Positions 9,862 to 59,800 of a DNA stretch of 64,000 nucleotides are shown here, piece by piece. The stretch is taken from assembly GCA_001000675.1 (NCBI GenBank), contig LCHW01000001.1, positions 68,013 to 132,012 of the forward strand, given 5' to 3'. The stretch comes from Candidatus Wolfebacteria bacterium GW2011_GWE2_44_13. GTDB lineage: Bacteria; Patescibacteriota; Minisyncoccia; UBA6257; UBA9933. A program made the translations under genes and the position numbers. Every line of letters begins with the position of its first letter. The stretch's first letter is position 1. Below the pieces are notes generated by a model. It saw nothing but the letters and a program-made list of their open reading frames with translations. It was not told where the DNA came from and did not search any database.

Positions 9862-10134
9862 ATGGCAATTATCAAAAAGAAAGCTTGGCCGGATTATTAC
9901 GAGCAGGTAGTGAGGGGAGAAAAGAAGTTTGATATGCGCGTTGCTGATTTCCCTGTTGTTGCGGGGGATACTCTTGTGCTAGAAGAATGGAATCCAGAAA
10001 TAAAGGAATATACTGGGCGTAGTATTAGTAAAAAAGTCGGATATGTAGGGACATTTCCGCTTGATGCGTTCGGGCAGCGGGAGGCCCTAGAGAAACATGG
10101 TCTGCATGTGATACAGTTTGAGGATGACGAGTAA
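9862..10134 (+). CDS. DUF3850 / ASCH-like PUA-fold protein
   Basis: MAIIKKKAWPDYYEQVVRGEKKFDMR...GDTLVLEEWNPEIKEYTGR matches the DUF3850 consensus (KIWPEYFEAVxSGKKTFEIR...EW...YTGR). Confidence 0.65.
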   Translation: MAIIKKKAWPDYYEQVVRGEKKFDMRVADFPVVAGDTLVLEEWNPEIKEYTGRSISKKVGYVGTFPLDAFGQREALEKHGLHVIQFEDDE

Positions 10135-10939
10135 GAAGCAACTGGAACAATTCAAGAAAATGGTTTGGGATTATTATCACGCTAATCGGCGTGATTTTCC
10201 GTGGAGGAAAAATATTAATCCGTATCGGGTCCTGGTTTCCGAAATCATGCTGCAGCAGACGCAGGTTTCGCGTGGCATCATTAAGTACAAAGAATTTTTA
10301 AAAGCATTTCCGACGTTTCCCGCACTTGCAAAAGCGTCTAATGCGGATGTGCTTACGGTGTGGCAGGGGCTGGGCTATAACCGACGCGCGCTGTATTTGA
10401 AAAAAGCTGCCGAGGTCGTGGTGAGCGAATACAAAGGAAAGCTTCCGGATACACCGGAGCTCCTTGTGAAATTGCCGGGGATTGGTATCTATACTGCCGG
10501 CGCTGTGTGCGCTTTCGCATTTAACAAACCCGTCGTTTTTATTGATACGAATGTACGACGCATCTACATCCACCATTTTTTTAACGATAAGGAGGGAATT
10601 ACTGATGCAGAACTTATTCCCTATATTGAGGCGACATTAGATAAAGAGAATGCACGAGAATGGTATTCGGCGCTTATGGATTATGGATCTATACTGGGTC
10701 TTAAAGAAGATAATGCGAATAAGAGAAGTGCGCATTATGTAAAGCAATCAAAATTTGAGGGTTCATTGCGACAAATTAGGGGGAAAATTCTTAAGCTTGT
10801 AACGAATAATAAACAGGTCACAAGAAAAGAATTGCAGAAAGTTTTAAACGAAACACCAGAGCGGATTGAAGAAGCTATTAAGGGGTTGGAGAAAGACGGA
10901 ATGCTAATTGTTAAAAAGAATACCATTGCAATTGCGTAA
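10118..10939 (+). CDS. HhH-GPD DNA glycosylase, MutY-like (no 4Fe-4S cluster loop)
   Basis: WRKNINPYRVLVSEIMLQQTQV matches the MutY N-terminus. HhH-GPD with LPGIGIYTAGAV and a catalytic Asp in VFIDTNV. No Cys-x6-Cys-x2-Cys-x5-Cys. Confidence 0.7.
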   Translation: MRMTSKKQLEQFKKMVWDYYHANRRDFPWRKNINPYRVLVSEIMLQQTQVSRGIIKYKEFLKAFPTFPALAKASNADVLTVWQGLGYNRRALYLKKAAEVVVSEYKGKLPDTPELLVKLPGIGIYTAGAVCAFAFNKPVVFIDTNVRRIYIHHFFNDKEGITDAELIPYIEATLDKENAREWYSALMDYGSILGLKEDNANKRSAHYVKQSKFEGSLRQIRGKILKLVTNNKQVTRKELQKVLNETPERIEEAIKGLEKDGMLIVKKNTIAIA

Positions 10940-10946
10940 TGGTATA

Positions 10947-11531
10947 ATGACGAATATGCGTATTGGAATAGATATAGATGATGTGTTGGCTGATACAGTA
11001 AATGCCGTCTGCACATTTCATAATGAAACGTATGGAACAAGCCTGAAGAGAGACGATTTTTTAAGTCGTCAGCTTTGGAAAGTATTAGGAGAATCAAAAG
11101 AGGATGCTTCCCAGAAGATGCAGCTGTTTTCCAAGACAGGACACGCCCTATCAAGGAGTGTTATTGATGGTGCATTTTTTGCACTTAGTGCATTTAAAAA
11201 ATCCGGGCATGAGTTATTTGGTGTGACTGCACGACCCCACTATATGGTTGATCAGACGGAAGTGTGGGTTGCTACTTATTTTCCAAATATATTTTCCGAA
11301 ATTCTATTTTGTGATACGGGGAAGGAGGGGGTCATAAAAGAGAAGAAATCAGACATTTGTAAAAGATTAGGTATTGGTATGATGATTGAGGACGATATTG
11401 ATCATGCGCTCGACTGTGCTGAGAATGGAATAGAAGTTATTTTATTGGATTGTCCCTGGAATCAAGGAGAATTACCGGAAAATGTCCATCGAGTTTCTTC
11501 ATGGACTGAGGCACTTCGATTAGTTCCGTGA
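10947..11531 (+). CDS. HAD-superfamily 5'(3')-deoxyribonucleotidase-like (NT5C family)
   Basis: MRIGIDIDDVLAD is the HAD motif I (DxDxV) typical of NT5C. TATAAT at 10944. Confidence 0.55.
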   Translation: MTNMRIGIDIDDVLADTVNAVCTFHNETYGTSLKRDDFLSRQLWKVLGESKEDASQKMQLFSKTGHALSRSVIDGAFFALSAFKKSGHELFGVTARPHYMVDQTEVWVATYFPNIFSEILFCDTGKEGVIKEKKSDICKRLGIGMMIEDDIDHALDCAENGIEVILLDCPWNQGELPENVHRVSSWTEALRLVP

Positions 11532-11606
11532 ATGCAACGATGTTTAACACCGTTACGCATCACGCTTTAGGAATAGTTTTATGCTGGCGTGTGATATACT
11601 TATGCT

Positions 11607-11840
11607 ATGAAATTAATTCCTATTGGGCTTGTTGAGGGAGATATGATGGGTGAAATTATTAAAGGGCGCCTTATTGCCGAAGGTATAGAATGTGAAATTA
11701 CATCACCGAGCAGAGCACATGCTTCTTCGGGAGCTGCGACCAAGGATCCGTATAGTTCTGAAATCTATGTTGCGGAAGACAAGAAGGATGAAGCTGCACA
11801 ACTTATAAAAGAAATCGATTCGACTGCAGTAATTTATTAA
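11607..11840 (+). CDS. DUF2007-like small protein
   Basis: MKLIPIGLVEGDMMGEIIKGRLIAEGIECEI... fits the DUF2007 pattern (MKLVxV...EAxxxKxxLExEGI). Confidence 0.4.
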   Translation: MKLIPIGLVEGDMMGEIIKGRLIAEGIECEITSPSRAHASSGAATKDPYSSEIYVAEDKKDEAAQLIKEIDSTAVIY

Positions 11841-11852
11841 TATCCAGTATTT

Positions 11853-14399
11853 ATGGGCCCTAAATTACTTGATAAACGGAAAAAGAAAGCTCTTAAGATT
11901 ATTAAAAAGCTGAAAGAGCTTTTTCCGGTTTCAAAAATTGCACTAAACTATTCCAATAATTGGGAGCTGCTCGTTGCGGTTGAACTGTCGGCACAATGCA
12001 CTGACAAAAAAGTGAATGAAGTAACGGAGATATTGTTTAAAAAATATAAAACATTGAATGATTACGTGCATGCTGATCCGCGTGCATTTGAAAAAGATAT
12101 TCATGCGACGGGGTTTTATCATAATAAAACGAAAAATATTCTTGCTGCGGCGAAGATGGTGCAAGGCCAATTTGGAGGAGTTGTGCCAAAGACGATGCAG
12201 GAAATGTTAGAGATTCCCGGGGTAGCGCGCAAGACGGCTAATGTTGTACTGGGAAGCGCGTATGGAGTTGTAGAAGGAATCGCGGTTGATACACATGTGA
12301 TACGACTCACGCGATTGTTAGGGCTTACAAGCGAATCGAACCCCGTAAAAATAGAGCGCGATTTAATGGAGATTTTACCGAAAGAAGAGTGGCTCGAATT
12401 CACGTATCGGTTGATCGATTACGGAAGGGCCTATTGCCCTGCTCGAGCACAAAAACTCTCTATAATCATCCCCCTCTTTCTCTTTTTATTACTACCGAAT
12501 AGTTCTTTTGCGCAGCAGCAGGTGTATTCGTATGATGCAATCAATACGACAATTACTGTTAACGGCGATGCAACGTTTACGGTTGAAGAGCAGCAATTGT
12601 TTAATTACGAGGCAGGAACGTTTCATCAAGGGTGGCGCGCTATTTCGCTTGATAAAATAAGCCGCATTACGGATGTGCAGGTTATTGATGGTGCAACAGG
12701 ACAACCATTACAACACAGTAGCCAACGGCTTAATAAAACCGATCCTGATAGCTGGGGAAAATATACAGGGTATACACAGGATGGGAATGTAAACATCGAA
12801 TGGTATTACGACCTTGCTAATACAAAGCACTTGTGGGTATTGCGGTATGTGGTGCACGGCGGGTTCTCGTTCTACAAAGAAAACGATCGATTATATTGGA
12901 ACGCATTAACTGACTATAGCAGTCCTATTGGACTCGCTTCTGTAAAAGTCTTATTCCCTGAGAATGCAGATCTATCTTCTATGCAGTTTGATGCGTATCG
13001 AGAAGATAGTTATGCGATAAATAAAATAGTACAGGGGAATAATAGTATCTATTTTGAAACTCCGTTTATTCAGCCATACGAAGCGTTTACCATAGACATC
13101 GCTTTTCCAAAAGGAATCATAAGTGAATCTGCATTTTGGAAAGAATGGCTTACTGCGTATTGGGGATACGTAGGCTCTGGTATTGCCGCTGTGCTTGGGG
13201 TATTGTTTTCATTATTGTATTGGTATCGCACGGAGCGCTATGGAAAAGGACGTGGCGTTATTATTGCGCAGTACGAGCCGCCGCAGCAATTGCGCCCAGC
13301 GATGGCCGAAGTTTTAGTTAAGGAAAAGATTACGGAAAAAACATGGCCGGCAACAATTATTGACCTTGCGGTTAGAGGGTATATTGCAATCAAAGAAGAG
13401 CCTGAAGATAAACTCGTTGTATTTATACGCCTTTCTCTTGCTGTGATTTTAGTGGGTATCTTAGGAGCTATTAGCGTCCTGGTGCTTTTTGTCGACGTTC
13501 CGTTTGAAGGGAGAATGCCGTTGGTTCTATTTATAGCGGCCCCAATCCTTGTCCTTATTATTGCTTATCGGAAGGAGGGCAGTATTAAAAAATCATTTGC
13601 ACCGAAGAGTTACATTTTAGAAAAAGTAAAGGAATACGAAAACGATCCTAGCCTTGAAGAGTATGAAGTTAAATTCCTGCGGATTATTTTTTCTGGCATC
13701 GACCTAGTAACTAAAGAAAAGAAAAACCATTTTTCGTTAAAAGAGATAAAAAAGAGCTCCTCGTCTCAGAGAGAGCTTGCGCGATTACTTAACCTTCTAA
13801 AGGATGATTTGTATAAGGAGACTGATAAAGACACAAAGGCATTCGAAAAAGCGATACATAAGGAAAAATATTTTATGTTTGTGCTGTTCGGCCTCACCTT
13901 TTTCTTCGCAATGCTTAATAAGATACAAATCATTGATTTGGAAAATCAGCTGCATTTCCTCGTGTTTGTGTGCGCCATTGTTGTAGCTGTTGTGATTGCA
14001 TTTATAAAATTTGAATCGCGGCTTTCGCATGAAGGATATCTCTTAAAAGAAGATTGGCTTGGGTTTAAGCTGTATTTAGAAACGGCAGAAAAATATCGTA
14101 TGCAGAATCTTACGCCTGATATTTTTGAAAAATATCTTCCGTACGCAATGATATTTGGTATTGAAAAAAAATGGGCAAAATCGTTTGAAGGTATACATAT
14201 GCAACCTCCGAGTTGGTACGGATCTTCTTCTGTCGGTATGGCTGCGGGGATTTCTTCTGGCACATCTTTTTCCCCAGTTGGTTTTAGCTCAAGTTTCTCG
14301 TCTTCTTTTTCAAGTGCCTTTGCGTCGGCAGGGGGAGGCGGGGGAGGAGGTGGATCTGCGGGCGGAGGAGGTGGAGGCGGAGGAGGTGGTGCGAGCTAG
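11853..14399 (+). CDS. Apparent in-frame fusion: endonuclease III-like HhH-GPD domain (aa 1-215, no FeS loop) + DUF2207 membrane protein with a C-terminal poly-Gly/Ser tail
   Basis: N-terminus is Nth-like (LLVAVELSAQCTDKKVN, GVARKTANVVL, AVDTHV). After ...DYGRAYCPARAQK it runs straight into a signal-peptide-like LSIIIPLFLFLLLPNSSFAQQ. TM helices follow, then WLGFKLYLETAEKYRMQ...FEKYLPYAMIFG and a SSSFSSSFSSAFASAGGGGGGGGSAGGGGGGGGGGAS tail typical of DUF2207. Confidence 0.6.
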   Translation: MGPKLLDKRKKKALKIIKKLKELFPVSKIALNYSNNWELLVAVELSAQCTDKKVNEVTEILFKKYKTLNDYVHADPRAFEKDIHATGFYHNKTKNILAAAKMVQGQFGGVVPKTMQEMLEIPGVARKTANVVLGSAYGVVEGIAVDTHVIRLTRLLGLTSESNPVKIERDLMEILPKEEWLEFTYRLIDYGRAYCPARAQKLSIIIPLFLFLLLPNSSFAQQQVYSYDAINTTITVNGDATFTVEEQQLFNYEAGTFHQGWRAISLDKISRITDVQVIDGATGQPLQHSSQRLNKTDPDSWGKYTGYTQDGNVNIEWYYDLANTKHLWVLRYVVHGGFSFYKENDRLYWNALTDYSSPIGLASVKVLFPENADLSSMQFDAYREDSYAINKIVQGNNSIYFETPFIQPYEAFTIDIAFPKGIISESAFWKEWLTAYWGYVGSGIAAVLGVLFSLLYWYRTERYGKGRGVIIAQYEPPQQLRPAMAEVLVKEKITEKTWPATIIDLAVRGYIAIKEEPEDKLVVFIRLSLAVILVGILGAISVLVLFVDVPFEGRMPLVLFIAAPILVLIIAYRKEGSIKKSFAPKSYILEKVKEYENDPSLEEYEVKFLRIIFSGIDLVTKEKKNHFSLKEIKKSSSSQRELARLLNLLKDDLYKETDKDTKAFEKAIHKEKYFMFVLFGLTFFFAMLNKIQIIDLENQLHFLVFVCAIVVAVVIAFIKFESRLSHEGYLLKEDWLGFKLYLETAEKYRMQNLTPDIFEKYLPYAMIFGIEKKWAKSFEGIHMQPPSWYGSSSVGMAAGISSGTSFSPVGFSSSFSSSFSSAFASAGGGGGGGGSAGGGGGGGGGGAS

Positions 14400-14471: not shown

Positions 14472-14915
14472 ATGAAAGAAAAGTATACATTGATGGGCGT
14501 CATCCTCATTGCAATGCTTGTGGTTGGCGCTGTTGCGTATCGAACTGCATATCAGGAAAACGCATATCCTGAACGAGGAGAAGATGGGTGTTTCGGAGGA
14601 TGCCCAACGGGAGCGACTGTGGACGTGGAAGGTGGCGTAGCGCAATCAACTGTGACTTATACCGCTACCGGATTTTCTCCTGCACCACTTACGGTAAAAA
14701 TCGGAGAAACAGTTATGTTTAAAAATGAAAGCGTAAATCCAATGTGGGTTGCATCCGCACCACATCCAGCGCACACTGACTATCCGGAATTTGATGCAAT
14801 GAAAGCGATCATGCCAGGGGAATCTTACTCGTTCACCTTTAATAAGATTGGCACATGGAAATATCATAACCATATGAATGCCACCCAATACGGATCGATC
14901 ATGGTTACTGAATAA
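14472..14915 (+). CDS. Secreted cupredoxin-like domain protein (no canonical Cys ligand)
   Basis: Signal anchor and a single beta-sandwich-sized domain. TVKIGETVMFKNES...PGESYSFTF.KIGTWKYHNHM resembles the plastocyanin/EfeO cupredoxin fold. Confidence 0.45.
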   Translation: MKEKYTLMGVILIAMLVVGAVAYRTAYQENAYPERGEDGCFGGCPTGATVDVEGGVAQSTVTYTATGFSPAPLTVKIGETVMFKNESVNPMWVASAPHPAHTDYPEFDAMKAIMPGESYSFTFNKIGTWKYHNHMNATQYGSIMVTE

Positions 14916-14927
14916 TATAAAGATACA

Positions 14928-14956
14928 ACGGCTTGCCAACTGGCAAGCCGTTTTGG
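14928..14956 (+). terminator. Rho-independent terminator
   Basis: cggcttgcca-ac-tggcaagccg followed by ttttgg. Confidence 0.7.
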
Positions 14957-14976
14957 TGTATACTTAAGAGAGATAT

Positions 14977-15465
14977 ATGTATATGAAAATGAAGAAGGGG
15001 ATTATTTTATCAATATTGTTCTTGGGCTCGATGGTACTGTCTGTGGTTATTTTTCTATTACACCCGAGCTTCTTTTTAAGTCGCAAACAGATTGGCAATA
15101 GCGTTTCTTTCCCTGAGAAAAATATTACTGTTTCAGTTGAGCTTGCCGTAACGCCCTATCAATGGAGTAAGGGGCTTATGTTTCGCGAAGAACTTGCTTC
15201 GGGAGCGGGGATGCTCTTTGTATTTCCGAATGAAGAAATACGCTCGTTTTGGATGAAAAATACACTCATACCGCTTGATATCCTATTTATCAATGCAGAT
15301 AAAAAAATAGTGACTATGCATAAAGATGTGCAGCCATGCACAACGCTGCTTTGCCCACAGTATGCTTCGACGGTGAAGGCTATGTATGCGCTTGAGGTGA
15401 ATGCTGGGTTCGTTGATGCGCATGTTATACATGAAGGGGATACACTAGTGATCGCAAAGAAGTGA
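14977..15465 (+). CDS. DUF192 family protein (COG1430)
   Basis: VELAVTPYQWSKGLMFREEL..GMLFVFP.....FWMKNTLIPLDILFI..D.KIV matches the conserved DUF192 core. Confidence 0.75.
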   Translation: MYMKMKKGIILSILFLGSMVLSVVIFLLHPSFFLSRKQIGNSVSFPEKNITVSVELAVTPYQWSKGLMFREELASGAGMLFVFPNEEIRSFWMKNTLIPLDILFINADKKIVTMHKDVQPCTTLLCPQYASTVKAMYALEVNAGFVDAHVIHEGDTLVIAKK

Positions 15466-15505
15466 CAATCGACTTATTTTTAGATATGCTGCTACATACA
15501 AATAT

Positions 15506-16834
15506 ATGAAGATGCAAAAGAATAAAGTATTAATACAGGGAATGCATTGTGAATCCTGCGCAATTCGAATCGAGCAGGCGCTTAATGCTATTGAGGGGAT
15601 TGAGCAGGTTTCGGTCAATCGTGAGAAGGGCGAGGCAATTATCGGTTTTAACGGACCCGCTCCTACATACGAGCAAATAGAAAAGGCTATTTGCGACGTT
15701 GGCTATTCTATAGGAAGCGCAGAAGATGTGCCATGGATATCAAAAAGAGCTAAAGATTACACACACCTTCTTATTGGAGGGGTTATTTTAGGGGCCCTTT
15801 ATTTGATTGCGCGAATGACTGGACTGCTTGATTTACGCTTAGATACTACCGGAGAGAATATTTGGGTTGCGCTTCTCGTCGGACTTACTGCTGGAGTTTC
15901 TTCTTGTATGGCACTCATCGGAGGACTTACGCTTGGTTTTTCCGCTCGACATGCTGAGCTGCATCCGGAAGCAACTCCTTTGCAGAATTTTAGGCCACAT
16001 TTATTTTTTAATGCGGGGAGGCTTTTGGGATATGCCTTGTTAGGAGGTTTTATTGGGTTGATCGGTTCGGTTATTAGTATTTCGACAACGATACTTAATC
16101 TTATGGCATTTGCCGTGGGAATTGTTATGGTTTTCCTCGGATTAAAATTGATTGATATTTTTCCTATATTAAAAAATAAAACAATAACACTCCCAAAGGC
16201 ACTCTCAAATGTTTTGGGTCTGCGCGATAGTGATAAAGAATATAGTCATTCGGGCGCGTTTATCGCGGGGTCGTTAACATTCTTTTTACCGTGCGGCTTT
16301 ACACAAGCAATGCAGTTGTATGCTGTGAGCACGGGTGATTTTGGTAAAGGAGCTTTGGTGATGTTTTTGTTTGCTGTTGGTACGACGCCGGGGCTATTGG
16401 GTATCGGTTGGCTCTCTTCTGTGTTTAAGGGCTTGCGGGCGCGTATATTTTTTGCAACCGCTGGGCTTGTTGTTATTGTGATGGGGAGTATTACCATCGC
16501 GAATGCGCTTCCTCCGCTGCCATCGCTTACTCAGCAGCATCCTGCGGTCACTGAAAGTATTTTAAATGGAGGAGCGCAAGAAGTGCGTATGACGCAAGGA
16601 CCTAATGGATATAGCCCTAATCAATTTATACTCAAAAAAGGAGTTCCCGTACGATGGATTGTTGATTCGACCAGTCAGTATTCATGCGCTAATTATCTTG
16701 TCATGTCTGACTATGATGTAAGACAAACATTAAAGCCTGGAGAAAATGTAATCGAATTTACTCCGACAGAGGATGGCAAGATACCGTTTGCGTGCTCTAT
16801 GGGTATGTATCGAGGTACGTTCATCGTGCAGTAA
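15506..16834 (+). CDS. Heavy-metal-associated (HMA) domain + polytopic DsbD_2/CcdA-like membrane domain + C-terminal cupredoxin-like domain protein
   Basis: N-terminal GMHCESCAIRIEQAL is the MxCxxC HMA motif. The 6-8 TM region has Cys in TM segments (GVSSCMALIGG, FFLPCGFTQ). The C-terminal roughly 90 aa are beta-rich and end ...ACSMGMYRGTFIVQ. Confidence 0.55.
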   Translation: MKMQKNKVLIQGMHCESCAIRIEQALNAIEGIEQVSVNREKGEAIIGFNGPAPTYEQIEKAICDVGYSIGSAEDVPWISKRAKDYTHLLIGGVILGALYLIARMTGLLDLRLDTTGENIWVALLVGLTAGVSSCMALIGGLTLGFSARHAELHPEATPLQNFRPHLFFNAGRLLGYALLGGFIGLIGSVISISTTILNLMAFAVGIVMVFLGLKLIDIFPILKNKTITLPKALSNVLGLRDSDKEYSHSGAFIAGSLTFFLPCGFTQAMQLYAVSTGDFGKGALVMFLFAVGTTPGLLGIGWLSSVFKGLRARIFFATAGLVVIVMGSITIANALPPLPSLTQQHPAVTESILNGGAQEVRMTQGPNGYSPNQFILKKGVPVRWIVDSTSQYSCANYLVMSDYDVRQTLKPGENVIEFTPTEDGKIPFACSMGMYRGTFIVQ

Positions 16835-18154: not shown

Positions 18155-19237
18155 ATGAAATCATCAAAATCACTCTCAATACTCCTATCCGTTATTGTTA
18201 CTACACTTACTGTTGTCTTTATTGTATCTGCGGACAATTGGACTCCACCTGCTGGAGAGCCTACGGCAAATAACACACCTGCGCCTATTCATGTTGGAGG
18301 GAATGCCCAATCTAAGTCAGGAGGGCTTATTGTGGGGGCTGGACTTTCTGCTTCGCAAAATGCATTGATTGTTCCTACGGGGAATGTGCTTGTGGGGACT
18401 ATTAATGGGCAAACGGCTCCTAATGGAGGGGGTGGAAATGTGGTTGCAAATGATTTCTATATTACAAGTATCGGTAAATGGGTGAGTCAGCTCTCTACTA
18501 ATGCACCTTTTTCGCAGGGAACACAGGTGTTTAATGAGACTGGAACATTCACTGTTCCTGAAGGCGTATACTCAGTTGAGGTAACCGCTTGGGGTGGAGG
18601 GGGAGGAGGGTTAGCTGCCTGCTTCGAAGCAGACCGGAATTCGCGTGACACGGGTGGGTCTGGAGGAGGTGGCGGGGCGTGGGCAAAAAAGGTTATCGCT
18701 GTTACGCCTACGGTTACCTATGATGTGGTAGTTGGCGGAGGAGGGGCAGGAGGAATAAGAGGAGGAAGTCGTGGTTGTGCCACAGGGGGGTCTGGGGGAA
18801 AAAGTTCATTCGGCGCTGATTTGCTCGTCGTAAAAGGAGGGGGTGCTGCGTCTTATGATGGGGGTCCAAACAATGACATCCTGAGGGGTGGAGCGGGAGG
18901 GGCTGCTACTGCCGGGGACGGCGAATCTTTGGCTGGAGAAAATGGAGGAGATGCAGATGGATTACCAGAGGGTGCGAGAGGCGGATCTTCTCCAAATGGA
19001 GGGGCTAAAACATCAAGGTCAACTGGCGTGGGGTCTTCAGGCTTTACTCCAGGAGGTGGCGGAGGTGGCGGAGCACTAACTGTTTTGACAGCCGGCTATT
19101 ATAATTCTGTAGAGAATGCCGATGTCCCTGGGTACTACAACCAAGAATGGGTTGCTCCTACATATACTTATCATGTAGGAGGCGCCGGTGCAAAAGGTAA
19201 GGTGATCGTTACTTGGGGCGGTGCAGTAGCACCGTAG
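18155..19237 (+). CDS. Secreted Gly-rich protein, paralog A of the NWTPP/NNTPAPINVG N-terminal-domain family
   Basis: Signal peptide with AxA cleavage (VSA/DNW). The mature N-terminus DNWTPPAGEPTANNTPAPIHVGGNAQSKSGGLIVGAGL...ALIVPTGNV is shared with 19760 and 24430. The rest is Gly-rich (GGGGG runs). Confidence 0.55.
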   Translation: MKSSKSLSILLSVIVTTLTVVFIVSADNWTPPAGEPTANNTPAPIHVGGNAQSKSGGLIVGAGLSASQNALIVPTGNVLVGTINGQTAPNGGGGNVVANDFYITSIGKWVSQLSTNAPFSQGTQVFNETGTFTVPEGVYSVEVTAWGGGGGGLAACFEADRNSRDTGGSGGGGGAWAKKVIAVTPTVTYDVVVGGGGAGGIRGGSRGCATGGSGGKSSFGADLLVVKGGGAASYDGGPNNDILRGGAGGAATAGDGESLAGENGGDADGLPEGARGGSSPNGGAKTSRSTGVGSSGFTPGGGGGGGALTVLTAGYYNSVENADVPGYYNQEWVAPTYTYHVGGAGAKGKVIVTWGGAVAP

Positions 19238-19351
19238 GAAACGGTGTTTCTAATGAAGCCGGTGGCTTTAAAAAAGGAATCGGCGGAAAAGTTGCAAATG
19301 GAAAAGTTATTTTGCAATGGTAACTAGCTAGAAGCGTTTTACTGCAAAACA

Positions 19352-19382
19352 AAAACACCAGCGCTCGCTGGTGTTTTTGTTT
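19352..19382 (+). terminator. Rho-independent terminator (family aacaccagcgc-N-cgctggtgtt, repeated three times in the island)
   Basis: Hairpin followed by tttttgttt. Near-identical copies at 20719 and 23390. Confidence 0.7.
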
Positions 19383-19410
19383 ATGCTCTCAATGTGGTAA
19401 AATAATTGCA

Positions 19411-19746
19411 ATGAGTTTTAAGGAAATAATAATAAAATATCGTATTGCTATCGTGATTGTAATAGTCGCGGTTACGCTTGCCATTTTTGGTATATATGTG
19501 ATGACGGGACGTAACGTTGCGCCGCCTATAGAAGAGCCCCCTCAATCTTCTGAACCCATTATTCTTACTCCTGAATTAACAAAAGTATTAATCAAGGAGA
19601 TGAGTGTTCCTACGACAACAGAGGTTCAAATGCCTAAAAATAAAATAGAGGAAGTTAAAAAAGAAATGTCAGTTGATCCTAAGAAAACTCCGCCAGTTTC
19701 TAGCGACACAATAAATAGCTTGCTCGATTCGATGAGTGCAAAGTAA
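19411..19746 (+). CDS. Small membrane-anchored hypothetical protein
   Basis: 111 aa with an N-terminal TM and a Pro/Glu-rich tail. A remnant paralog lies upstream at about 18.05-18.14 kb. Confidence 0.45.
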   Translation: MSFKEIIIKYRIAIVIVIVAVTLAIFGIYVMTGRNVAPPIEEPPQSSEPIILTPELTKVLIKEMSVPTTTEVQMPKNKIEEVKKEMSVDPKKTPPVSSDTINSLLDSMSAK

Positions 19747-19759
19747 TTATCACATCCTT

Positions 19760-20704
19760 ATGAAATCACCAAAACTACTTTCTCTTATATTATCAATTAT
19801 CATCACTACACTTGTAGTGTTTCTCGGTGTTTCTGCTGATTGGGCAGGTCCTGTAAGTGAACCACCAGATGGAAACGTAGCGGCTCCGATTAATATTGGA
19901 GGCAATGCACAATCAAAGTCTGGAGGTCTTATTGTTGGAGCAGGACTTACTGCTGCACAGACTGCACTTATTGTTCCTGCGGGGAATGTAGTCATCGGAA
20001 CGCTTACCCCAATAAATTCTGCTCCTAATGGAGCGGGAGGTAATGCGAGCGTAAACGATCTCTATATCCGCAGTATCGGTAAATGGGCTTCGCAGCTTTC
20101 TGTGGGTCCAGTTGCAGGGCCAGCTGCCTATTGCGGAGGAGTTGCATATGATGCGGAAAATGCGTATTGTCAAAACGACATTATTTATAACGTAGGGGAT
20201 TGGATTCCGCTCGACAACGACTCGAGCAACCAAACAGATCCAGCTGGAAATTGGTCAACACTTATAACAAAACAAGTAACATTTCCTGTTAAAACCTGTA
20301 AGCTAAAAGCACAGGCCGGCTTTAATGATGGAGGATTCGTTGCTGTTTTTGATGGCGCAGCTCGACTTGCCCTTTGGGAAAAGAATTTTACGATTGAAAA
20401 TATGGAAGCAGGTATCGGGCGGTTTTCTGTAAAAGATCAAAATAACCAAGCTTGCGGAGTTTCCGGTTTTGTTGACGGAGGGGACTATACACAGACTTTC
20501 TATACTTCCACTGCGCCCTATGTTGAGGGAGGGGTTTTGAAATGGTGCGGTTATGTTGCTTGGAGGAGTTCGGGAAGCGCTAATACGAATGAGTATACTG
20601 TTAGCAAAGCAAAGGGGACGACGGCAACTGTGTATTCGACGCATGCATTGGGGGATAGTGGAGATAATCATTCATACACGCTTTACGGCAAATATTGCAA
20701 TTAA
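19760..20704 (+). CDS. Secreted protein, paralog B of the conserved N-terminal-domain family
   Basis: Start MKSPKLLSLILSII by homology to MKSSKSLSILLSVI of paralog A. Mature N-terminus DWAGPVSEPPDGNVAAPINIGGNAQSKSGGLIVGAGLTAAQTALIVPAGNV. Unrelated Cys-containing C-terminal domain. Confidence 0.55.
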   Translation: MKSPKLLSLILSIIITTLVVFLGVSADWAGPVSEPPDGNVAAPINIGGNAQSKSGGLIVGAGLTAAQTALIVPAGNVVIGTLTPINSAPNGAGGNASVNDLYIRSIGKWASQLSVGPVAGPAAYCGGVAYDAENAYCQNDIIYNVGDWIPLDNDSSNQTDPAGNWSTLITKQVTFPVKTCKLKAQAGFNDGGFVAVFDGAARLALWEKNFTIENMEAGIGRFSVKDQNNQACGVSGFVDGGDYTQTFYTSTAPYVEGGVLKWCGYVAWRSSGSANTNEYTVSKAKGTTATVYSTHALGDSGDNHSYTLYGKYCN

Positions 20705-20718
20705 AGCGAGCTATAGCA

Positions 20719-20746
20719 AAACACCAGCGCGCGCTGGTGTTTTTTA
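20719..20746 (+). terminator. Rho-independent terminator (same family)
   Basis: aacaccagcgcgcgctggtgtt followed by ttttttat. Confidence 0.7.
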
Positions 20747-20948
20747 TCCGATTCGATTGCCATTACTATTGTAGGGGCAAATGGTGCAAAACTACGTGCG
20801 GTTCCATAAAAAGAGCCTAGAGCTCTTTTTATGAGGGGCGATTGTATATTCTACTCGGAAGATTTAAAATTAACAGTATTAACTAAAACATATAGCATCC
20901 TGTCGATTTAGCCACTAATTATAGGCTAAGTGCTCGATACCTCAAAAA

Positions 20949-21398
20949 ATGAAAAAAAATATAATCTTATCTATAGTAGGAGTACTCGTTGTAATCGGTA
21001 GCTTTCTTTTGGGAGCGTATATGATGACTCGATCGGCAGAAAATGCCCCAGCTGCTTCCGAGGAGACTGTAAATCAGAAATTTTCTGAAGAACAAATAAG
21101 TTCAATTACGGCGTTGACTCCGGGTAATATTGTATCCGGTCAGGTGATTACGATAGGAAGTAATGAATTAGATATTTCTGTCGCGATAGAAAATGTGTTT
21201 GATGAGTTAGCAGACCCACAGATGACCACGGTAAAAGTGCCTGTTAATAAACAGGATGTGATTAGTAGGCTCGTGAATGATCCAGAAGCCTTCATTTTTA
21301 AGCAAACCATCATGCCGCTTAGCGAAATAAAAATCGGGGACTATGCAACGGTGAAGGTACTTGATGACAAAAAAGTAATTTTTGTAACCTCACAATAA
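20949..21398 (+). CDS. Membrane-anchored hypothetical protein
   Basis: 149 aa, N-terminal TM. The stop overlaps the next start (ATGA). Confidence 0.4.
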   Translation: MKKNIILSIVGVLVVIGSFLLGAYMMTRSAENAPAASEETVNQKFSEEQISSITALTPGNIVSGQVITIGSNELDISVAIENVFDELADPQMTTVKVPVNKQDVISRLVNDPEAFIFKQTIMPLSEIKIGDYATVKVLDDKKVIFVTSQ

Positions 21399-23281
21399 TG
21401 AAAAAATATACTATATCATTTCTATTAGTAGCTCTGACGGTTACGATGATACCCGTAACGTCTTTTGCTGCTATTGATTGGTTCCAGAGTCCTTCTCTTG
21501 TGTACCCGACCAGGCCCGGCCATTTTATTAATAGCGATTTATTAAAAGATAAGGCGAGCTTGCCGTTAGACACACCGCTAACAACTACGCGCGTGGTTAA
21601 TTTACTGAATAGTATACCGAGTACGAATGGAGTTGATGGGGTAACTCCTATTATATCGAAGATGGTAGGTGTTTCCTCTGCAACTCCTGATGCGGTATCG
21701 TTTTTTCGAAAAACATATGGATTTAAAAATAACCAAGCGGCGTATTTGCCTATAGAGGCTACGGATACAGAGGGAATTGCTTATTTATACCAACCACCTT
21801 TGCCAGCTCCAAAGGCTGATACTACGGAGCTTATTACGGCAACCTCATCTATTAGGGTTAACGGGAAGGACAAAGTTGTTACAAAGTATTATCTTAAGCA
21901 GACGTTTATTAAAAACGATTTAACTAAAATAGTTAAAAAGGAAAAGAATCTTTTTATTAAATATAAGGACGAAAATAATGTAGATATTATTGATTATCGC
22001 AATATCTTACAAGAAATAACCTCGTTTACCTATACACGGTATACGCCTGTTACGGAGATACTTAAAGGAGATAAAACCCCCACTCCAACATGCGTAGTGA
22101 CGGGGTATGATGATAGTGGGGAGATCACGGAATGTACTAGCCCTGATGTAGTGGCATACGTCGATGGGAAAACATATGCCGGTTATGCAGTGACTGGTTT
22201 GGTGTGGAAGCGTAATGCGGATAAAAAAGCGCTTGACCCGTTGCTTCCTTTTGGAATCCCCTTTGGGATTACGGAAGCATTTTCCCCTACGTACTCCACG
22301 GTTGCCTCTCCGCAGGCTCCTGAAATGACCGCATCAATTACGAGACCGCTTAATAGTGATATCATATGGCGGGGAAATCCTAATTGCGTTACAGATACAG
22401 ATAAAGATTGGAATAAAACAACTGTTACTATCGCCTGCACTATGCGTGCAATAGCTGCCGATGGGCGTATTGGGTCTGGTAATTTCTATCAGAGAGAAAG
22501 CAGTGGGGGCTTTCTGGGTGGATGGATGGGGGATATATTCTCTCTCTCGTTTACGGCAGGGCTAGCAGAAATCGCAGGGCTGCCTCCATTTGGTGGATTT
22601 GTGACTGGGGACTTCTTTTCTAACGACCCCTTTATACAACTAGCAGGTATCCCAAGGGCACTGGGGACAGTCCAATCCTTGTATAATGTTGGAGGGGTGC
22701 CTTGGACATGGACGTGGACTAGCCGGTTTAATGTGCAGGAGGATAAGGATATTCCACAAGTCACACTTCGAGCTAGGGGACAATTGTCAGATCTTGATGT
22801 TTGGGTGCCAAATAATGCGGTTGTGTTAGATTGGACATCGCAGAATGTTAAACCAACGTGTAACGTTTCCGGAAATTGGTCTGGAACGAGAGCGAATAAG
22901 GGTACGCAGTTATTAGGAAAATTGCCGAGAACAGGTGCTAAGCCAAATGAGGCAAAGCAGTATACCTATACAATAAGTTGTGTAGATATAAATTCAACCG
23001 CAACCGTTTCGTCGAGTGTTTCGGTCAATGTTTGGCCGGCTACCCTCAAGCTTCCTATACCAACTAATGGTTCTTGTGGGGATTCGCATAAAAAAGTTAT
23101 TGCTTCTACTCCCGTTTCTGGTCTTTGTGTGGTTGGGTCTGCCTCGTCTGTAACTGGTACTGACCCGTGGACTTGGACTTGTTATGGGGCAGATGGAGGC
23201 TCGGACGCTTCTTGTGAGGCTTCATCATCTAATTCGACTTCTACTAAAGTGCGTATTATCGAGACAAACCCTGGAGAATAA
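21398..23281 (+). CDS. Large secreted hypothetical protein with a C-terminal 4-Cys domain ending ...KVRIIETNPGE
   Basis: 627 aa with a signal peptide (SFA/AIDW). The C-terminal tail motif is shared with the 23479 protein. Confidence 0.45.
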   Translation: MKKYTISFLLVALTVTMIPVTSFAAIDWFQSPSLVYPTRPGHFINSDLLKDKASLPLDTPLTTTRVVNLLNSIPSTNGVDGVTPIISKMVGVSSATPDAVSFFRKTYGFKNNQAAYLPIEATDTEGIAYLYQPPLPAPKADTTELITATSSIRVNGKDKVVTKYYLKQTFIKNDLTKIVKKEKNLFIKYKDENNVDIIDYRNILQEITSFTYTRYTPVTEILKGDKTPTPTCVVTGYDDSGEITECTSPDVVAYVDGKTYAGYAVTGLVWKRNADKKALDPLLPFGIPFGITEAFSPTYSTVASPQAPEMTASITRPLNSDIIWRGNPNCVTDTDKDWNKTTVTIACTMRAIAADGRIGSGNFYQRESSGGFLGGWMGDIFSLSFTAGLAEIAGLPPFGGFVTGDFFSNDPFIQLAGIPRALGTVQSLYNVGGVPWTWTWTSRFNVQEDKDIPQVTLRARGQLSDLDVWVPNNAVVLDWTSQNVKPTCNVSGNWSGTRANKGTQLLGKLPRTGAKPNEAKQYTYTISCVDINSTATVSSSVSVNVWPATLKLPIPTNGSCGDSHKKVIASTPVSGLCVVGSASSVTGTDPWTWTCYGADGGSDASCEASSSNSTSTKVRIIETNPGE

Positions 23282-23389
23282 AAATAATTAATCTTGTGTT
23301 CCGTAAGGTGGGGTAGTCATAGATATTTTGTTCCTATGTAGTGTGTTGTATCTAGTTTGGTCGATAGAAGTCATAAAATTAAAAACAAA

Positions 23390-23423
23390 CCTTAAAACAC
23401 CGGCGCATGCTGGTGTTTTAAGG
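23390..23423 (+). terminator. Rho-independent terminator (same family)
   Basis: ccttaaaacaccggcgcatgctggtgttttaagg. Confidence 0.65.
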
Positions 23424-23478
23424 TTGAGGGGTTTTATGGTAGAATAAATGTAGTAATCATATATAGTATTTAATCATT

Positions 23479-24387
23479 ATGAAAAAAATTGATATCCGAA
23501 AAAACAGTTATCTTTTGTTCGGATTTGCTTGTGGTGTCACGCTTTTTGCGGCATACATAATAGCATTTGGTGGTTTTGAAGCACGTAACGATGGGCCTCT
23601 TGCTTCTGCACAAGAAGCCCCGTTTGTAGTTCCTCCAACCGACCCCTCTGTGCGTGGATGGATGTGGTCTTCAAATATCGGATGGATTAGCTTTGATTGT
23701 CGAGATGGAGGACGGTGCGGTACCGGAGCTGGTCAGGCTAATTATGCGTCGCCTATCAATCTGACTACGGGGGTAGTGTCGGGATATGCATGGTCTTCGA
23801 ATATTGGATGGATTAAAATGAACCCAACGGGAGCGTATCCTTCTGCGCCTAACCATGGATTGCAGGCGGACATAAATACGGGGGTTTTATCTGGTTGGAT
23901 GCGTGCCTGTAGCGGCGCGGCAAATGCTAACTGTACTGGAGGAGCTGTCGATGGATGGGACGGGTGGATTAAAGTGTATGATGCAAAAATTTCTAGTGGA
24001 GGGTACATTACGAACACCGTAGGTACTAGTGGGGGATGGATGTGGGGCGGCGATGTTGTCGGTTGGGTAAAAACCTCTGACATTATTGGAACTATTGGGA
24101 CTTCGTTCCCTGTTGCAGATTGTGCATTTAGAGCAACGCCTCCTTCAATCATGCCCCCACAATCAGTTAAATTGGAGTGGATTTGTAATGATGCTACGCA
24201 GCAAAATTCGTGCAGCATCGATAATGGTGGTGGATCTAATTTACCAACATCGGGAAACGTTGTTATGCGCCCAACTGAAACAACTCCTTACGTATTAACA
24301 TGCCAAGGATTTGGTGGTCCAGTGATAAAGAATTTGCCAGTTACTATAACAAAAACAAAGATTATTGAAGTGCGTCCTGGGCAGTAA
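23479..24387 (+). CDS. Membrane-anchored protein with SSNIGWI / GW-containing repeats and a C-terminal Cys domain ending ...KIIEVRPGQ
   Basis: Repeats GWMWSSNIGWISFDC / GYAWSSNIGWIKMNP / GWDGWIKVYD / GWMWGGDVVGWVKTSD. C-terminal tail similar to the 21398 protein. Confidence 0.45.
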   Translation: MKKIDIRKNSYLLFGFACGVTLFAAYIIAFGGFEARNDGPLASAQEAPFVVPPTDPSVRGWMWSSNIGWISFDCRDGGRCGTGAGQANYASPINLTTGVVSGYAWSSNIGWIKMNPTGAYPSAPNHGLQADINTGVLSGWMRACSGAANANCTGGAVDGWDGWIKVYDAKISSGGYITNTVGTSGGWMWGGDVVGWVKTSDIIGTIGTSFPVADCAFRATPPSIMPPQSVKLEWICNDATQQNSCSIDNGGGSNLPTSGNVVMRPTETTPYVLTCQGFGGPVIKNLPVTITKTKIIEVRPGQ

Positions 24388-24429
24388 GATTCTTTTCGAA
24401 ACACAGCCGTAATCTAAAGTTACTAATAT

Positions 24430-25422
24430 ATGCATACATCAAAATTTATTACGTATTTCATAGCAGTGGTCCTTACGGTCGGTATCGGTGCTGCGCTTGC
24501 TACTGCAGCAAATTGGACGCCACCTACTCAAGAGCCTCCGGCAAATAATACTCCTGCGCCAATTAATGTTGGGCCTACTGCTCTACAAACAATAGACGGC
24601 GCACTTACGGTGAAGGGGCTTATCGAAACAACAACAGCCTTAGGAGGTATTAAATTTCCCGACGGAACGATTCAAAAAACAGCTGCTGTTACAACAAATG
24701 TGGGCGGAGAGGGTTGCTATCCGATGGCCGGGAATAACTGTCTCGTAGGATATTATATGAGTGGTATTGCTACGTGCTGTCCCCTTGATGCAAATAAAGC
24801 ATTCACTCCGGGGGTTTGGTTCCTTAATAAGCTTGCCGTTTCTTATCCACGTGAACAAACGTATAACAATGTATGGTCTCCTAAGAAAACTGATTCGTTT
24901 GTCGCACAATATGCGATTAATAAAATTCGTATAAAGGGTTCCGCTGATGACGGTGGCTATTGTTACGCGTATTGGGGCACTGGACATGCACAAACAAGTC
25001 GTAATACTGGCGCAAGCGGATTGTTTACGGTAGATGGTAAATGGTATGGAGCTCCAAATGCGGGGCAATGGTTCAGCAACACTGTGAATGGTGCCTGTCC
25101 GCAAAGTTTAAATCCATATCCGGGCAGCCCTCATTTTACGAAGATTCCTGTGTGTGATAATGTCGACTGGGAAGGCTATTGCACGGACCCTGAGCAAGCC
25201 TACGGTTGTGGATTTACTCGCTGTCCGTTTGGAGCAAATACATTTGACGATACAGGAAATGCGAAAATATGCGCAACAAACTATGATTCTGGTAATATGA
25301 CGACGATTGTCGAAGATGTTGTTATCCCTGCTGGGGCAACGGTTACTTTGCAAGGGCGACATGCAAACGGGTGGCGACATGGCTATCTTAGCTGCGCACT
25401 TGATTTCCAATACACTCCTTAA
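24430..25422 (+). CDS. Secreted protein, paralog C of the conserved N-terminal-domain family, with a Cys-rich C-terminal domain
   Basis: Mature N-terminus ANWTPPTQEPPANNTPAPINVG matches paralog A almost residue for residue. About 16 Cys downstream. Confidence 0.55.
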   Translation: MHTSKFITYFIAVVLTVGIGAALATAANWTPPTQEPPANNTPAPINVGPTALQTIDGALTVKGLIETTTALGGIKFPDGTIQKTAAVTTNVGGEGCYPMAGNNCLVGYYMSGIATCCPLDANKAFTPGVWFLNKLAVSYPREQTYNNVWSPKKTDSFVAQYAINKIRIKGSADDGGYCYAYWGTGHAQTSRNTGASGLFTVDGKWYGAPNAGQWFSNTVNGACPQSLNPYPGSPHFTKIPVCDNVDWEGYCTDPEQAYGCGFTRCPFGANTFDDTGNAKICATNYDSGNMTTIVEDVVIPAGATVTLQGRHANGWRHGYLSCALDFQYTP

Positions 25423-56775: not shown

Positions 56776-56805
56776 TCGTTGCCGCTGAAAACGAAAAAAA
56801 TTAAA

Positions 56806-59800
56806 ATGAGCATAGTATTTAAAAAGCTTTCTATCGTTGCTCTCTCGCTCGCCCTTTTGGCAGGCGTTGTTTCAACTCCGGTTGCAAACGGCGCTACGAA
56901 CGAGGAATTACAGGCACAGATCTCTGCTATGACAGCGCAGATCAATGCCCTCCTCGCTCAGCTTGCTGGAACTCCGGCGACAGTAGCAACAACCCCAGCA
57001 ATGTCTTCATACACGTTTACCCGCAACCTCACTGTTGGGTCAACTGGTGCAGATGTTATGGAACTCCAGAAGTTCCTCGTTTCCTCAGGGCACTTGGTCC
57101 TTGCAAATCCAACCAACTATTTTGGTAACATGACCAAGGCAGCGTTGGCAAAGTTCCAGGCAGCTAATGGCATTTCGCCAGCAGTTGGATACTTCGGACC
57201 ACTCACCCGTACTTCAGTGAACGGAATGATGACCCCAGTAACTCCAGTAACTCCAGTTACTCCAGTAACTCCAGTAACTCCAGTAACTCCAGTTGTAACG
57301 TCTGGCGCAGTATCTCTTGCTTCTACTAACCCAGCAGCAGGATACATCGTAGCAGGACAGGCAGGAGCACGTTTGGCAGCTATCCAGTTCTCAGGAGCAG
57401 GATCAGTAACCAGCCTTGTTCTTAAGCGCACTGGTCTTTCGACCAATGACGTATTGACCAATGTCTACTTGTATGATGGAAATACTCGCATCACCGATGC
57501 AGCTTCTATCAATGCAGAAGGCGTAATCACTTTCAACAATCCTTCAGGGCTGTTCACAGCTCCTAAGACCGTTGAAGTTCGTGCAGATGTAACCTCGACC
57601 GCTACTGGACAGACCACAGTTGCAATTGAAGTTTCTTCATACACTATGTCAGGTGGAACTGCGACTGCAGTTACCGGCATAGTTGGAAACACGATGCAGA
57701 TGTCAACCGCAGCTTTGGCCACGGTTACTATGCAGACCAATAACCAAAATCCGAACAACACTACTTCCTTGAGCGTTAATGCTGGTACAGTTAACCAGAA
57801 CGTTTGGGATGTAACCTTGAACGTCGGAACTCGTGCAGTATCGTTGAAGGGACTTACATTTAAATATGTAGGATCAGCTTCATCTGATGCAGTAGGAAAC
57901 CTTGGCGTTTACGTTGACGGAGTAAAGGTTGGTTCAACTGCAACCGTAAATGCCATGGGCCTTGTTGCCTTTGACTTTACTGCAGCCCCAGTAACTCTTA
58001 CGACAGGAGCACGCACTATTCAGTTGCGCGGTGACTTCGTAAAGGGTTCGAACCGATCTGCTCAGTTCTACGTACAGAACTTGGCTGACTACATGATTGA
58101 AGATACGCAGGTTATGGGAGCATTTATTTCCCCAACCAGCGGAGCAAACGTCTATGGTTACAACTTTAACATCCAGTCAGGATCTATCGTTGTAAATCAG
58201 GATCAAACCTACTCAGCTACTCAGGTAGTTGGTGGATCTTCAAACGTTAACCTTGGTAAGTTTACCTTCAAGGCATATGGTGAAGATGTAAAAATCGAAA
58301 CCTTGGTCTTGACCCCGTCAGGAACTTTCACTGGATGGACTTCTGGTGCAAATATCCAGAATGTAACCTTGTATGTAAATGGTGCAGCTGTTGGTTCTTC
58401 ACAGAACTGGAGCCCAACCACTTCAGCAACACTTACTTTCAATCCAGGTGCAAACATGATCATTCCAGCTGCAGGAGTTTCTACTCTTGAAGTACGTGGA
58501 GATCTCCGCGATGGAGCTGGTGTGAACTACACTGGAGGAACCGTACAGGTTGACGTAACTTCCTTTGTTGGACGAGGACAGCAGTCACAGGCAACTGTTA
58601 CAAGCGCCTCTGCAACAGGACGAAACTTGACCATTGGTTCAGCCACAGTTAGCTTCTCAAAGACTGGTGGATTCTTGGGTTCAACTGTTACTCCAAATGC
58701 AAACGCAAAGATTGGTTCATTTACACTTTCAAACTCAAACTATGAGGATGTACGCGTAACGAACTTGTCTGTTGGCTTGCTCTTTGGTGCAGGTATGACC
58801 ATCACCAACGTTTCAAACCTTCGCGTATCTGACTCAGCAACTATCGTTGCTCAGCCAACCGCAGACAGCAACTTCTCTATGGATGTTGTTGTTCCTATGA
58901 ACTCAACTAAGGTATTCGAGATCACTGCTGACCTCGGTTCAACTGCCTCTACAACGGCAACTGTTACCGCAAATGCAACCTCTTCATACCGTGGCGTAAG
59001 TTCAGGAGTTTCTACAACTGCAGGTGCAGCTGGTGTAGCTATGACAGCTAACACCGCTACTCTTGTAGCAGCAGATGTTACCAAGTTGTCTTCATCAGCT
59101 CCTTCTCAACTTGTTGTTGGAGGAACTGTTATGCCAACCGTTATTTATAACGTAAAGTCATCAACTGCTCCAGTAACAATCACGGAATTGACCTTTGACG
59201 CCGCTACTTCAACCGATGCAATCACTGCTATTAAGGTTGGTGGTGTTACAAAGACAATCACTGCTTTGACTGGAAACGTTGTCACTGGTTTGAACATTGC
59301 TGTTCCAGCTGGTGCGTCAGGATTGAACATTCCAGTTGATGTTACTTTTGGAACTGTAAACACAAATGGTGGAATCGCTTCGCAGCCTACTGCGGTCGAC
59401 ACTATTACGCTTACTGCCGTTAAGTACACCAGTGGAAACACTACTGATACCGTGACCACAGCTTCTACTACGCTTGTTTCTAACGCTATGCAGCTTGTTG
59501 CTTCTAAGCCAAGCTTGACCGTTAATGGAACACAGCAGGGTGGATTGTTGCTTGGTTCTGAGAATAAGATTGGTGAAGTTACCGTTATTGCAGATGCAAA
59601 GGGTGACATCAAGTTGAATCTCTTGACATTCAATATTGGATACTCAGGATTCTCAACTGGTCCAGCTCTTTCAGGTGTTCGCATCGCAGATGGTTCAACA
59701 ACTATCAGCGGAACAACTGCTACGACAACAACGTCAACGACCTCACCAGTTATTACTGTTGACTTCGGTGATGCCGCAACCAGCAGCGATGGATACTCTA

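Follow-up and report, generated by a model that had tools for sequence, protein, structure and literature searches.

A strain-level deletion probably joined neighbouring nth and DUF2207 genes into one reading frame in a groundwater Candidatus Wolfebacteria population

The 64-kb stretch of contig LCHW01000001.1 analysed here (hereafter the window) comes from Candidatus Wolfebacteria bacterium GW2011_GWE2_44_13, part of a groundwater Wolfebacteria population. It contains an open reading frame (ORF) in which nth, the gene for an endonuclease III (EndoIII) homologue, runs without interruption into a gene for a membrane protein of the DUF2207 family (Table 1). The exact 848-amino-acid (aa) product has been deposited from the same genome as GenBank KKT43480.1, under the annotation "Endonuclease III". 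Pfam places HhH-GPD (PF00730) at residues 45-177 (4.6e-19), the HHH motif (PF00633) at residues 107-133, the N-terminal domain of DUF2207 (PF09972) at residues 230-418 and DUF2207_C (PF20990) at residues 591-778. The nth model TIGR01083 matches residues 10-199 with its positions 1-189 of 192 at 208.5 bits and does not reach its cut-off of 211.7. The catalytic residues are kept, with ARK127TANV and AVD146TH aligning to GRKTANV and AVDTH of the structures 2ABK and 1ORN (K120 and D138 in E. coli). Similarity to Nth stops at YGRAYCPARA, beyond which the ORF reads QK, then LSIIIPLFLFLLLPNSSFA, then QQQ; C195 is the sole Cys remaining in the loop region. A previous sequence-only reading of this DNA had described an Nth-like core whose likeness ends where the cluster loop is expected, with one Cys left, followed in the same ORF by a signal-peptide-like segment and a full DUF2207 protein with a poly-Gly tail. 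The ORF call, Pfam and TIGR01083 bear out this description, and the remaining Cys is C195 within YGRAYCPARA. The Gly-rich tail is kept in DUF2207 orthologues and is a feature of the family, not an artefact.

Table 1. Features in and around the nth-DUF2207 ORF, and the alleles found at the junction. Positions are those of the window unless preceded by a contig handle (contigs L001 to L089 are identified in the text); nt, nucleotides.
Feature	Position	Strand	Description
MutYX-type clusterless adenine glycosylase (predicted)	10118..10939	+	273 aa; separate gene, same cluster
NT5C-family 5'(3')-deoxyribonucleotidase-like gene	10956..11840 region, ends 11531	+	191 aa; between mutYX and nth
DUF2007-like gene	11607-11840	+	77 aa; between mutYX and nth
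Chimeric ORF	11853..14399	+	848 aa, uninterrupted; codons 1-199 of nth, then DUF2207 in the same frame from its codon 3
nth-derived part	11853..12451	+	HhH-GPD core, catalytic Lys127 and Asp146, first loop ligand Cys195
Deletion scar	12450..12452	+	hybrid codon CAA (Gln200)
DUF2207-derived part	12452..14399	+	N-terminal extracytoplasmic domain, ~5-6 further hydrophobic segments, DUF2207_C
Former signal peptide of DUF2207	12456..12512	+	native MKKLSIIIPLFLFLLLPNSSFA, followed by QQQ; now an internal hydrophobic segment, residues 202-220
Gly-rich C-terminal tail	14331..14396	+	GGGGGGGGSAGGGGGGGGGGAS
Junction sequence in the window			GAGCAC followed by AAAAACTC
Chimera-spanning peptide at the junction			...CPARAQKLSIIIPL
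Breakpoint site sequence			GCTCGAGCACATAATCATGCG
Intact allele	L087:3596-3606		L001, L086, L087
3-nt deletion allele	L083:3596-3600		L083; HNH to HH
32-nt deletion allele	L084:3569		L084; frameshift, Nth stops at residue 189
49-nt deletion allele	12451		window and L089; nth-DUF2207 fusion

In the relatives of this genome the two halves of the ORF are separate genes. In the ancestral arrangement, nth (211 aa, with its own stop) is followed on the same strand, after 7 nt and in another frame, by DUF2207. In contig AMFJ01036445 of ACD_81 (L001), Nth ends in ...YCPARAHNHAQCPLSTIT at its stop and DUF2207 starts MKKLSIIIPLF... 7 nt further on, and the order is the same in the sister genome GW2011_GWC2_39_22 (L002). 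Separate genes are present in both of these, L001 being 100% identical, as well as in the assemblies of SRR1658471 (PRJNA268031; L087) and SRR446575 (L086) and in ERZ28564033 (SAMN03203003; L083). A DNA alignment of the window to L001 contains a single gap, of 49 nt, at 12451 between GCTCGAGCAC and AAAAACTCTC; outside it the two are 100.000% identical over 2,098 and 1,930 nt, with 1 nt of microhomology at the breakpoint, and over 15 kb no other difference marks the background of the fusion allele. The missing 49 nt, ATAATCATGCGCAATGTCCTCTCAGTACCATCACATAATATCTATATGA, comprise the last 12 codons of nth (200-211) with the TAA stop, the spacer of 7 nt and the ATGA of the DUF2207 start. As can be read directly from the sequence, the genes are joined in frame because they are offset by +1 and 49 is of the form 3n+1. 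The native last 12 residues of Nth, HNHAQCPLSTIT, are missing from the fused ORF, and the C-terminal 647 residues of that ORF are 100% identical to the separate 650-aa DUF2207 of the sister contigs, the ATG and the first Lys codon having been deleted, so that DUF2207 has no start codon of its own. Against TIGR01083, the native intact Nth protein of the sister contigs (P0098) scores 213.0 and passes the cut-off missed by the fused form, while the product of a 32-nt deletion allele discussed below falls to 197.3. The 90% protein cluster of KKT43480.1 likewise unites fused and unfused forms: its other members include an Nth of 211 aa (EKD23646.1, ACD_81) and DUF2207 proteins of 645-663 aa that stand alone, and these unfused members are 100% identical to the respective halves of the ORF.

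Logan contigs, which are read-level assemblies without scaffolding, reproduce the junction from two separate SRA runs, which shows it to be a real allele rather than an error of sequencing or assembly. One of these contigs, of 30,815 bp from SRR29904088 (L089), matches the window, including the junction, at 100% identity over 15,056 nt, and the other, of 10,057 bp from SRR29904083, encodes the same 848-aa product. An artefact of assembly, scaffolding or sequencing in the GW2011_GWE2_44_13 genome might be suspected, since the deposited genome is a curated metagenome scaffold and the site differs, or the contig breaks there, in other assemblies of this population. Against it stand the exact junction in contigs from both runs and the nature of the change itself, as the loss of 49 nt of unique sequence is atypical for a short-read or de Bruijn-graph error and there is no long repeat to collapse. 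We consider an artefact extremely unlikely. Exact-pattern scans for the junction flanks in collections of metagenome and genome contigs, which do not include this population, gave 0 matches.

A search for homologues of the full ORF provides a second view of its history. Every DUF2207 match (~580-670 aa) was without HhH-GPD and every HhH-GPD match without DUF2207. We also used a profile of 24 DUF2207 orthologues to collect 80 Patescibacteria loci more distant than the window clade, and searched their flanks (up to 4 kb on each side, less on short contigs) with Nth by tblastn; nth lay near DUF2207 in 0 of 80. Adjacency of the two genes was seen only in the window clade and L002. The fusion is thus private to one allele and the adjacency local to a small clade, and we therefore do not regard the ORF as an evolved architecture. 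A functional recruitment would make it a membrane-anchored endonuclease III, with DUF2207 tethering the glycosylase to the envelope of an ultra-small cell. The ORF is indeed intact and in frame, Lys127 and Asp146 are kept, basic residues precede the hydrophobic segment in a plausible topology, and the allele occurs in more than one dataset. Yet the fusion is confined to a single allele in a single population, the genes are separate in identical strains and in all relatives, the adjacency is not kept beyond the clade, the junction removes three of the four conserved ligands of the Nth metal loop, and zero divergence since the event leaves no sign of selection on the fused form. We judge recruitment very unlikely.

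Altogether, the 848-aa ORF is very probably no evolved multidomain protein but an allele that a deletion produced recently in one strain. The sequence-only reading had weighed a genuine fusion or domain recruitment against an nth gene that had lost its 3' end and stop, had suggested looking in related genomes for separate or fused genes, and had named as possible refutations a junction error or orthologues with two genes and a stop at this place. Two genes with a stop in the relatives and a fusion in one allele, together with the absence of any other two-domain homologue and the 80 distant loci, tell against the first of these options; the second is what the alignment to otherwise identical contigs reveals, with a deletion of 49 nt as its cause, and the two Logan assemblies speak against an error. 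Before the deletion, nth clearly looks to have been a constrained, working gene until recently, because compared with L002 its ratio of nonsynonymous to synonymous substitution (dN/dS) is 0.10 at a dS of 0.36, its loop is unchanged and the intact allele passes TIGR01083.

The loop that the deletion cuts is itself unusual. In native Nth it reads C-x4-H-x-H-x2-C (P0098 residues 195-205; L087:3580-3612; window 12435-12451) and not Cys-x6-Cys-x2-Cys-x5-Cys; the intact allele is thus without a fourth Cys, and the deletion takes three of the four loop ligands. We compared the 120 closest Nth homologues, which are 70-84% identical and come from Wolfebacteria, Azambacteria, Colwellbacteria and other Parcubacteria. 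Of the 120 tails classified, 117 contain precisely two Cys, arranged in the motif YC-x-A-R-x-H-x-H-x2-C-P-L, and the protein ends ~6 residues later. In the alignment to the Geobacillus stearothermophilus enzyme (Bst EndoIII, 1ORN), the first and last Cys of the loop take the places of Cys1 and Cys3 and its second His that of Cys2, with an extra His at +5. Across 163 pattern-matching homologues the four loop positions read CHHC in 122 and canonical C-P-C-C with a downstream Cys in 24, with hybrids in a handful (CHCH in 3, CHCC in 1); in a few, all four ligands are lost together (SKDD, AYID, QKVT and others). Since interchange of Cys and His and all-or-none loss are the behaviour of metal ligands, we infer that the loop is a metal site, most likely for zinc. 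These alignments place Nth in a Cys2His2 subfamily that is widespread among Patescibacteria. No PDB entry has a C-x4-H-x-H-x2-C loop, and in the literature we found no description of a Cys2His2 or clusterless EndoIII, only the general remark that ligand-lacking EndoIII variants exist.

The fusion junction is one of several changes at the same place. Allele-specific look-ups recovered further contigs of this population, among them JGI 3300025010 (L084), and together the contigs carry four alleles, intact and with 3, 32 or 49 nt deleted, in sequences that are otherwise 100% identical over 1.9-15 kb. A single shared breakpoint, CACA^TAAT in nth codon 200, fits all three deletions, which extend 3 or 49 nt rightward or 32 nt leftward from it, and all three disrupt the conserved Cys2His2 loop although nth was under purifying selection. 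A fifth assembly (L085) ends 52 nt upstream of the site in a fold-back typical of an assembler break. That fold-back, at L085:3547-3587, is a 41-nt reverse complement of window 12365-12325 and an assembler artefact, and it is the reason for a false nth stop and a 182-aa "protein", P0105. Codon 200 of nth could be a deletion hotspot, whether because the DNA is broken there site-specifically and repaired sloppily or because the loop or DUF2207 expression is under selection; the pattern could also be coincidental.

A site-specific process at this codon might take the form of a recurrent break or nick, from a nuclease or as a mobile-element footprint, followed by one-sided deletions, or of strong selection for destroying the Cys2His2 loop or rewiring DUF2207 expression. 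It would refine the interpretation of the ORF as a young deletion allele and is compatible with it. The coincidence of four alleles, one breakpoint and a nearby assembly break in an otherwise invariant background argues for such a process. On the other side, it comprises only three events, and no mechanism was found. Slippage between direct repeats does not account for the deletions, as the local 8-nt repeats predict losses of 34 or 60 nt and not of 3, 32 or 49 nt. A hairpin or cruciform at the breakpoint was likewise rejected (DNA fold z = -1.2; 0 inverted repeats). Rfam at E <= 1 revealed no structured RNA or intron remnant at the site, its only two matches being weak and more than 3 kb away; CRISPR self-targeting is unsupported by any array or second copy of the site within the window; and a sigma-70 scan found no promoter-like site on the + strand that would make CATAAT the -10 box of a DUF2207 promoter, promoters of the candidate phyla radiation being poorly known. 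We therefore treat a site-specific process as a tentative idea that is more doubtful than probable. Similarly speculative is the broader proposal that CACA^TAAT is a true hotspot of breakage or selection with the fusion as one of its products, and that the loop defines a widespread Patescibacteria lineage of Cys2His2 (zinc) EndoIII.

Several observations weigh against the interpretation of the ORF as a young strain-level deletion allele. Support for the allele comes from assembled contigs and not from raw reads, and SRR29904083 and SRR29904088 are perhaps not independent of the GW2011_GWE2 library. The allele is present in at least two or three datasets, and its persistence implies that it is not strongly deleterious, which leaves room for a neutral or even useful product. 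Finally, the same nucleotide was struck by two other deletions in sister contigs, so that the event was perhaps no simple random accident.

What the fused gene makes can be envisaged from its parts. We favor a scenario in which the 49-nt deletion, in one strain, removed the nth 3' end and stop, the spacer and the DUF2207 start and so produced a single frame. The Nth core would retain its catalytic Lys and Asp and lack three of the four Cys2His2 loop ligands, and the glycosylase is probably destabilised or impaired; we expect reduced stability or DNA binding of the fused Nth part because the loop that corresponds to the DNA-contacting iron-sulfur (FeS) cluster loop loses most of its ligands. 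The DUF2207 signal peptide, short of its Met-Lys and now internal, most likely acts as an N-in/C-out signal-anchor, with the ectodomain still exported, since its h- and c-regions (LSIIIPLFLFLLLPNSSFA, followed by QQQ) are kept and basic residues lie upstream. The hydrophobic segment formed by residues 202-220 has a Kyte-Doolittle value of 1.97, and R192, R198 and K201 are on its N-terminal side. Should signal peptidase continue to cleave behind SFA, mature DUF2207 would be formed normally, and a remnant of Nth would be left tethered to the membrane. In sum, we infer an impaired Nth and a DUF2207 that is still exported.

To be translated, DUF2207 would now need the start codon of nth or a putative internal one. 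A look for alternative start codons, as the sequence-only reading had proposed, turned up ATG 12366 and TTG 12411, both within nth, and GTG 12522, past the signal peptide, and no others in frame. Because these starts lie inside nth or beyond the signal peptide, synthesis of DUF2207 would be tied to translation of nth. In the intact alleles (L087:3605-3647, upstream of window 12452) an in-frame ATG stands 39 nt before the DUF2207 start, inside the nth 3' end, and it explains why one pipeline called a 663-aa DUF2207 (P0102, MRNVLSVPSHNIYMKK...) that overlaps nth.

The second HhH-GPD enzyme of the window is a MutY-like protein encoded upstream of nth, and relatives call its gene as 271 aa with the start Met at 10124. 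The protein has one Cys in total and none in the cluster region, and the mutY profile matched it only to position 193 of 277. It aligns to PDB 8UUC, the MutYX of Eggerthella, over residues 25-241 without gaps (E 5.1e-66). MutYX is a published family of clusterless MutY with an X domain, represented by 8UUC from Eggerthella sp., in which roles have been assigned to Arg193-Arg194, Gln201 and Arg209 (Trasvina-Arenas et al., NAR 2025, PMC12631127). The basic pair of the Hw helix is K-R in the window protein, where KRSAHY aligns to RRSAHH of 8UUC with Arg193-Arg194, and the 8-oxoguanine (OG)-recognition residues Gln201 and Arg209 are in register in the gapless alignment of VKQSKFEGSLRQ to TRQSTFEGSRRQ. 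The protein is, as judged from these matches, a member of the known MutYX family. The observation that it lacks cluster Cys was therefore correct. The wider claim of the sequence-only reading, that both HhH-GPD enzymes of the window are without the 4Fe-4S loop, holds in that both lack it, but the gap in Nth was not made by the fusion, as the intact subfamily has a Cys2His2 loop. The absence of a four-Cys loop from both glycosylases is, on these comparisons, a lineage trait unrelated to the fusion. As to the suggestion of the sequence-only reading that FeS-free HhH-GPD enzymes may reflect minimal FeS biogenesis, ten other ORFs of the window, selected by size or by Cys content, gave no suf, isc or FeS-protein matches, a sample that is uninformative at the scale of the genome, and we found nothing specific in the literature on FeS assembly.

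The genes between mutYX and nth are listed in Table 1. Directly downstream of the fused ORF, at 14472-16834 (+), lies a copper-flavoured trio made up of a 147-aa cupredoxin-like protein, a 162-aa DUF192 protein and one of 442 aa that combines HMA, DsbD_2 and cupredoxin domains; its gene order is kept in L002. A run of proteins with signal peptides follows at 18155-25422 (+), for which no Pfam match was recorded in the sister loci save Gly_rich_2 at 18155-19237. Three adjacent members of this run are rich in Cys (10, 9 and 12) in a proteome that is otherwise very Cys-poor. At 56779-60003 (+) a 1,074-aa Cys-free protein has PG_binding_1 at residues 89-144 as its only domain, and its gene contains a 9-nt tandem repeat, CCAGTAACT, in 6.6 copies (57235-57293). 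Up to ~33 kb nearly all window genes lie on the + strand and GC skew is positive; at ~33-37 kb and ~54-60 kb, where minus-strand genes occur, it is flat or reversed.

These findings have a practical side. As an 848-aa "Endonuclease III", KKT43480.1 is a caution, for it could be mistaken for a new domain architecture. The fusion is of interest in its own right as a polymorphic deletion allele caught at birth, a natural example of how adjacent genes fuse. MutYX has been described before; the Cys2His2 subfamily of Nth and the apparent deletion hotspot hold more interest than the fusion itself. If truly FeS-free, the EndoIII of this subfamily would be a useful test case for the role of the cluster in structure, DNA binding or redox signalling. 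Three deletions at one breakpoint in an otherwise invariant population, in turn, point to mutation or selection acting locally at this site.

The Nth part of the ORF shares the HhH-GPD signature and the catalytic Lys and Asp with endonuclease III of E. coli (2ABK) and G. stearothermophilus (1ORN/1P59), and it is 45-50% identical to the latter (E 2e-47) over the full length up to the first cluster Cys. These enzymes carry Cys-x6-Cys-x2-Cys-x5-Cys, whereas the native subfamily described here has C-x4-H-x-H-x2-C, ends 6 residues on and gives no match to the FeS domain PF10576; the window allele differs further in lacking its last 12 residues and running on into a membrane protein. Zinc sites are known in other HhH glycosylases, the "zinc snap" of TAG and the zinc linchpin of MUTYH. 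Each, like the predicted Nth site, supplies a DNA glycosylase from the HhH superfamily with a Cys/His tetrad. They differ from it in position and spacing, the Nth Cys2His2 loop being collinear with the FeS cluster loop of EndoIII and its metal a prediction.

The MutY-like protein resembles MutYX (8UUC) in having no cluster Cys and a short C-terminal domain that is not MutT-like, and in size (273 against 275 aa). Its origin in Patescibacteria, which the list of clades in PMC12631127 does not name, sets it apart, as do its last ~30 residues, which phmmer left unaligned; its role as an adenine glycosylase is predicted. With DUF2207 membrane proteins such as SMU.243 of S. mutans (PMC10457818) the window copy has in common both Pfam domains, the signal peptide, the transmembrane bundle and the Gly-rich tail. 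Unlike them it lacks its own start codon and forms the C-terminal part of the nth ORF; the family is known by its domain and not by a molecular function. As in other fusions that arise by deletion of the stop and spacer between co-oriented neighbours, a single small 3n+1 deletion has joined operon neighbours. Here, in contrast to such cases, a natural clonal population shows the event while it is still polymorphic, and its breakpoint is common to two other deletions.

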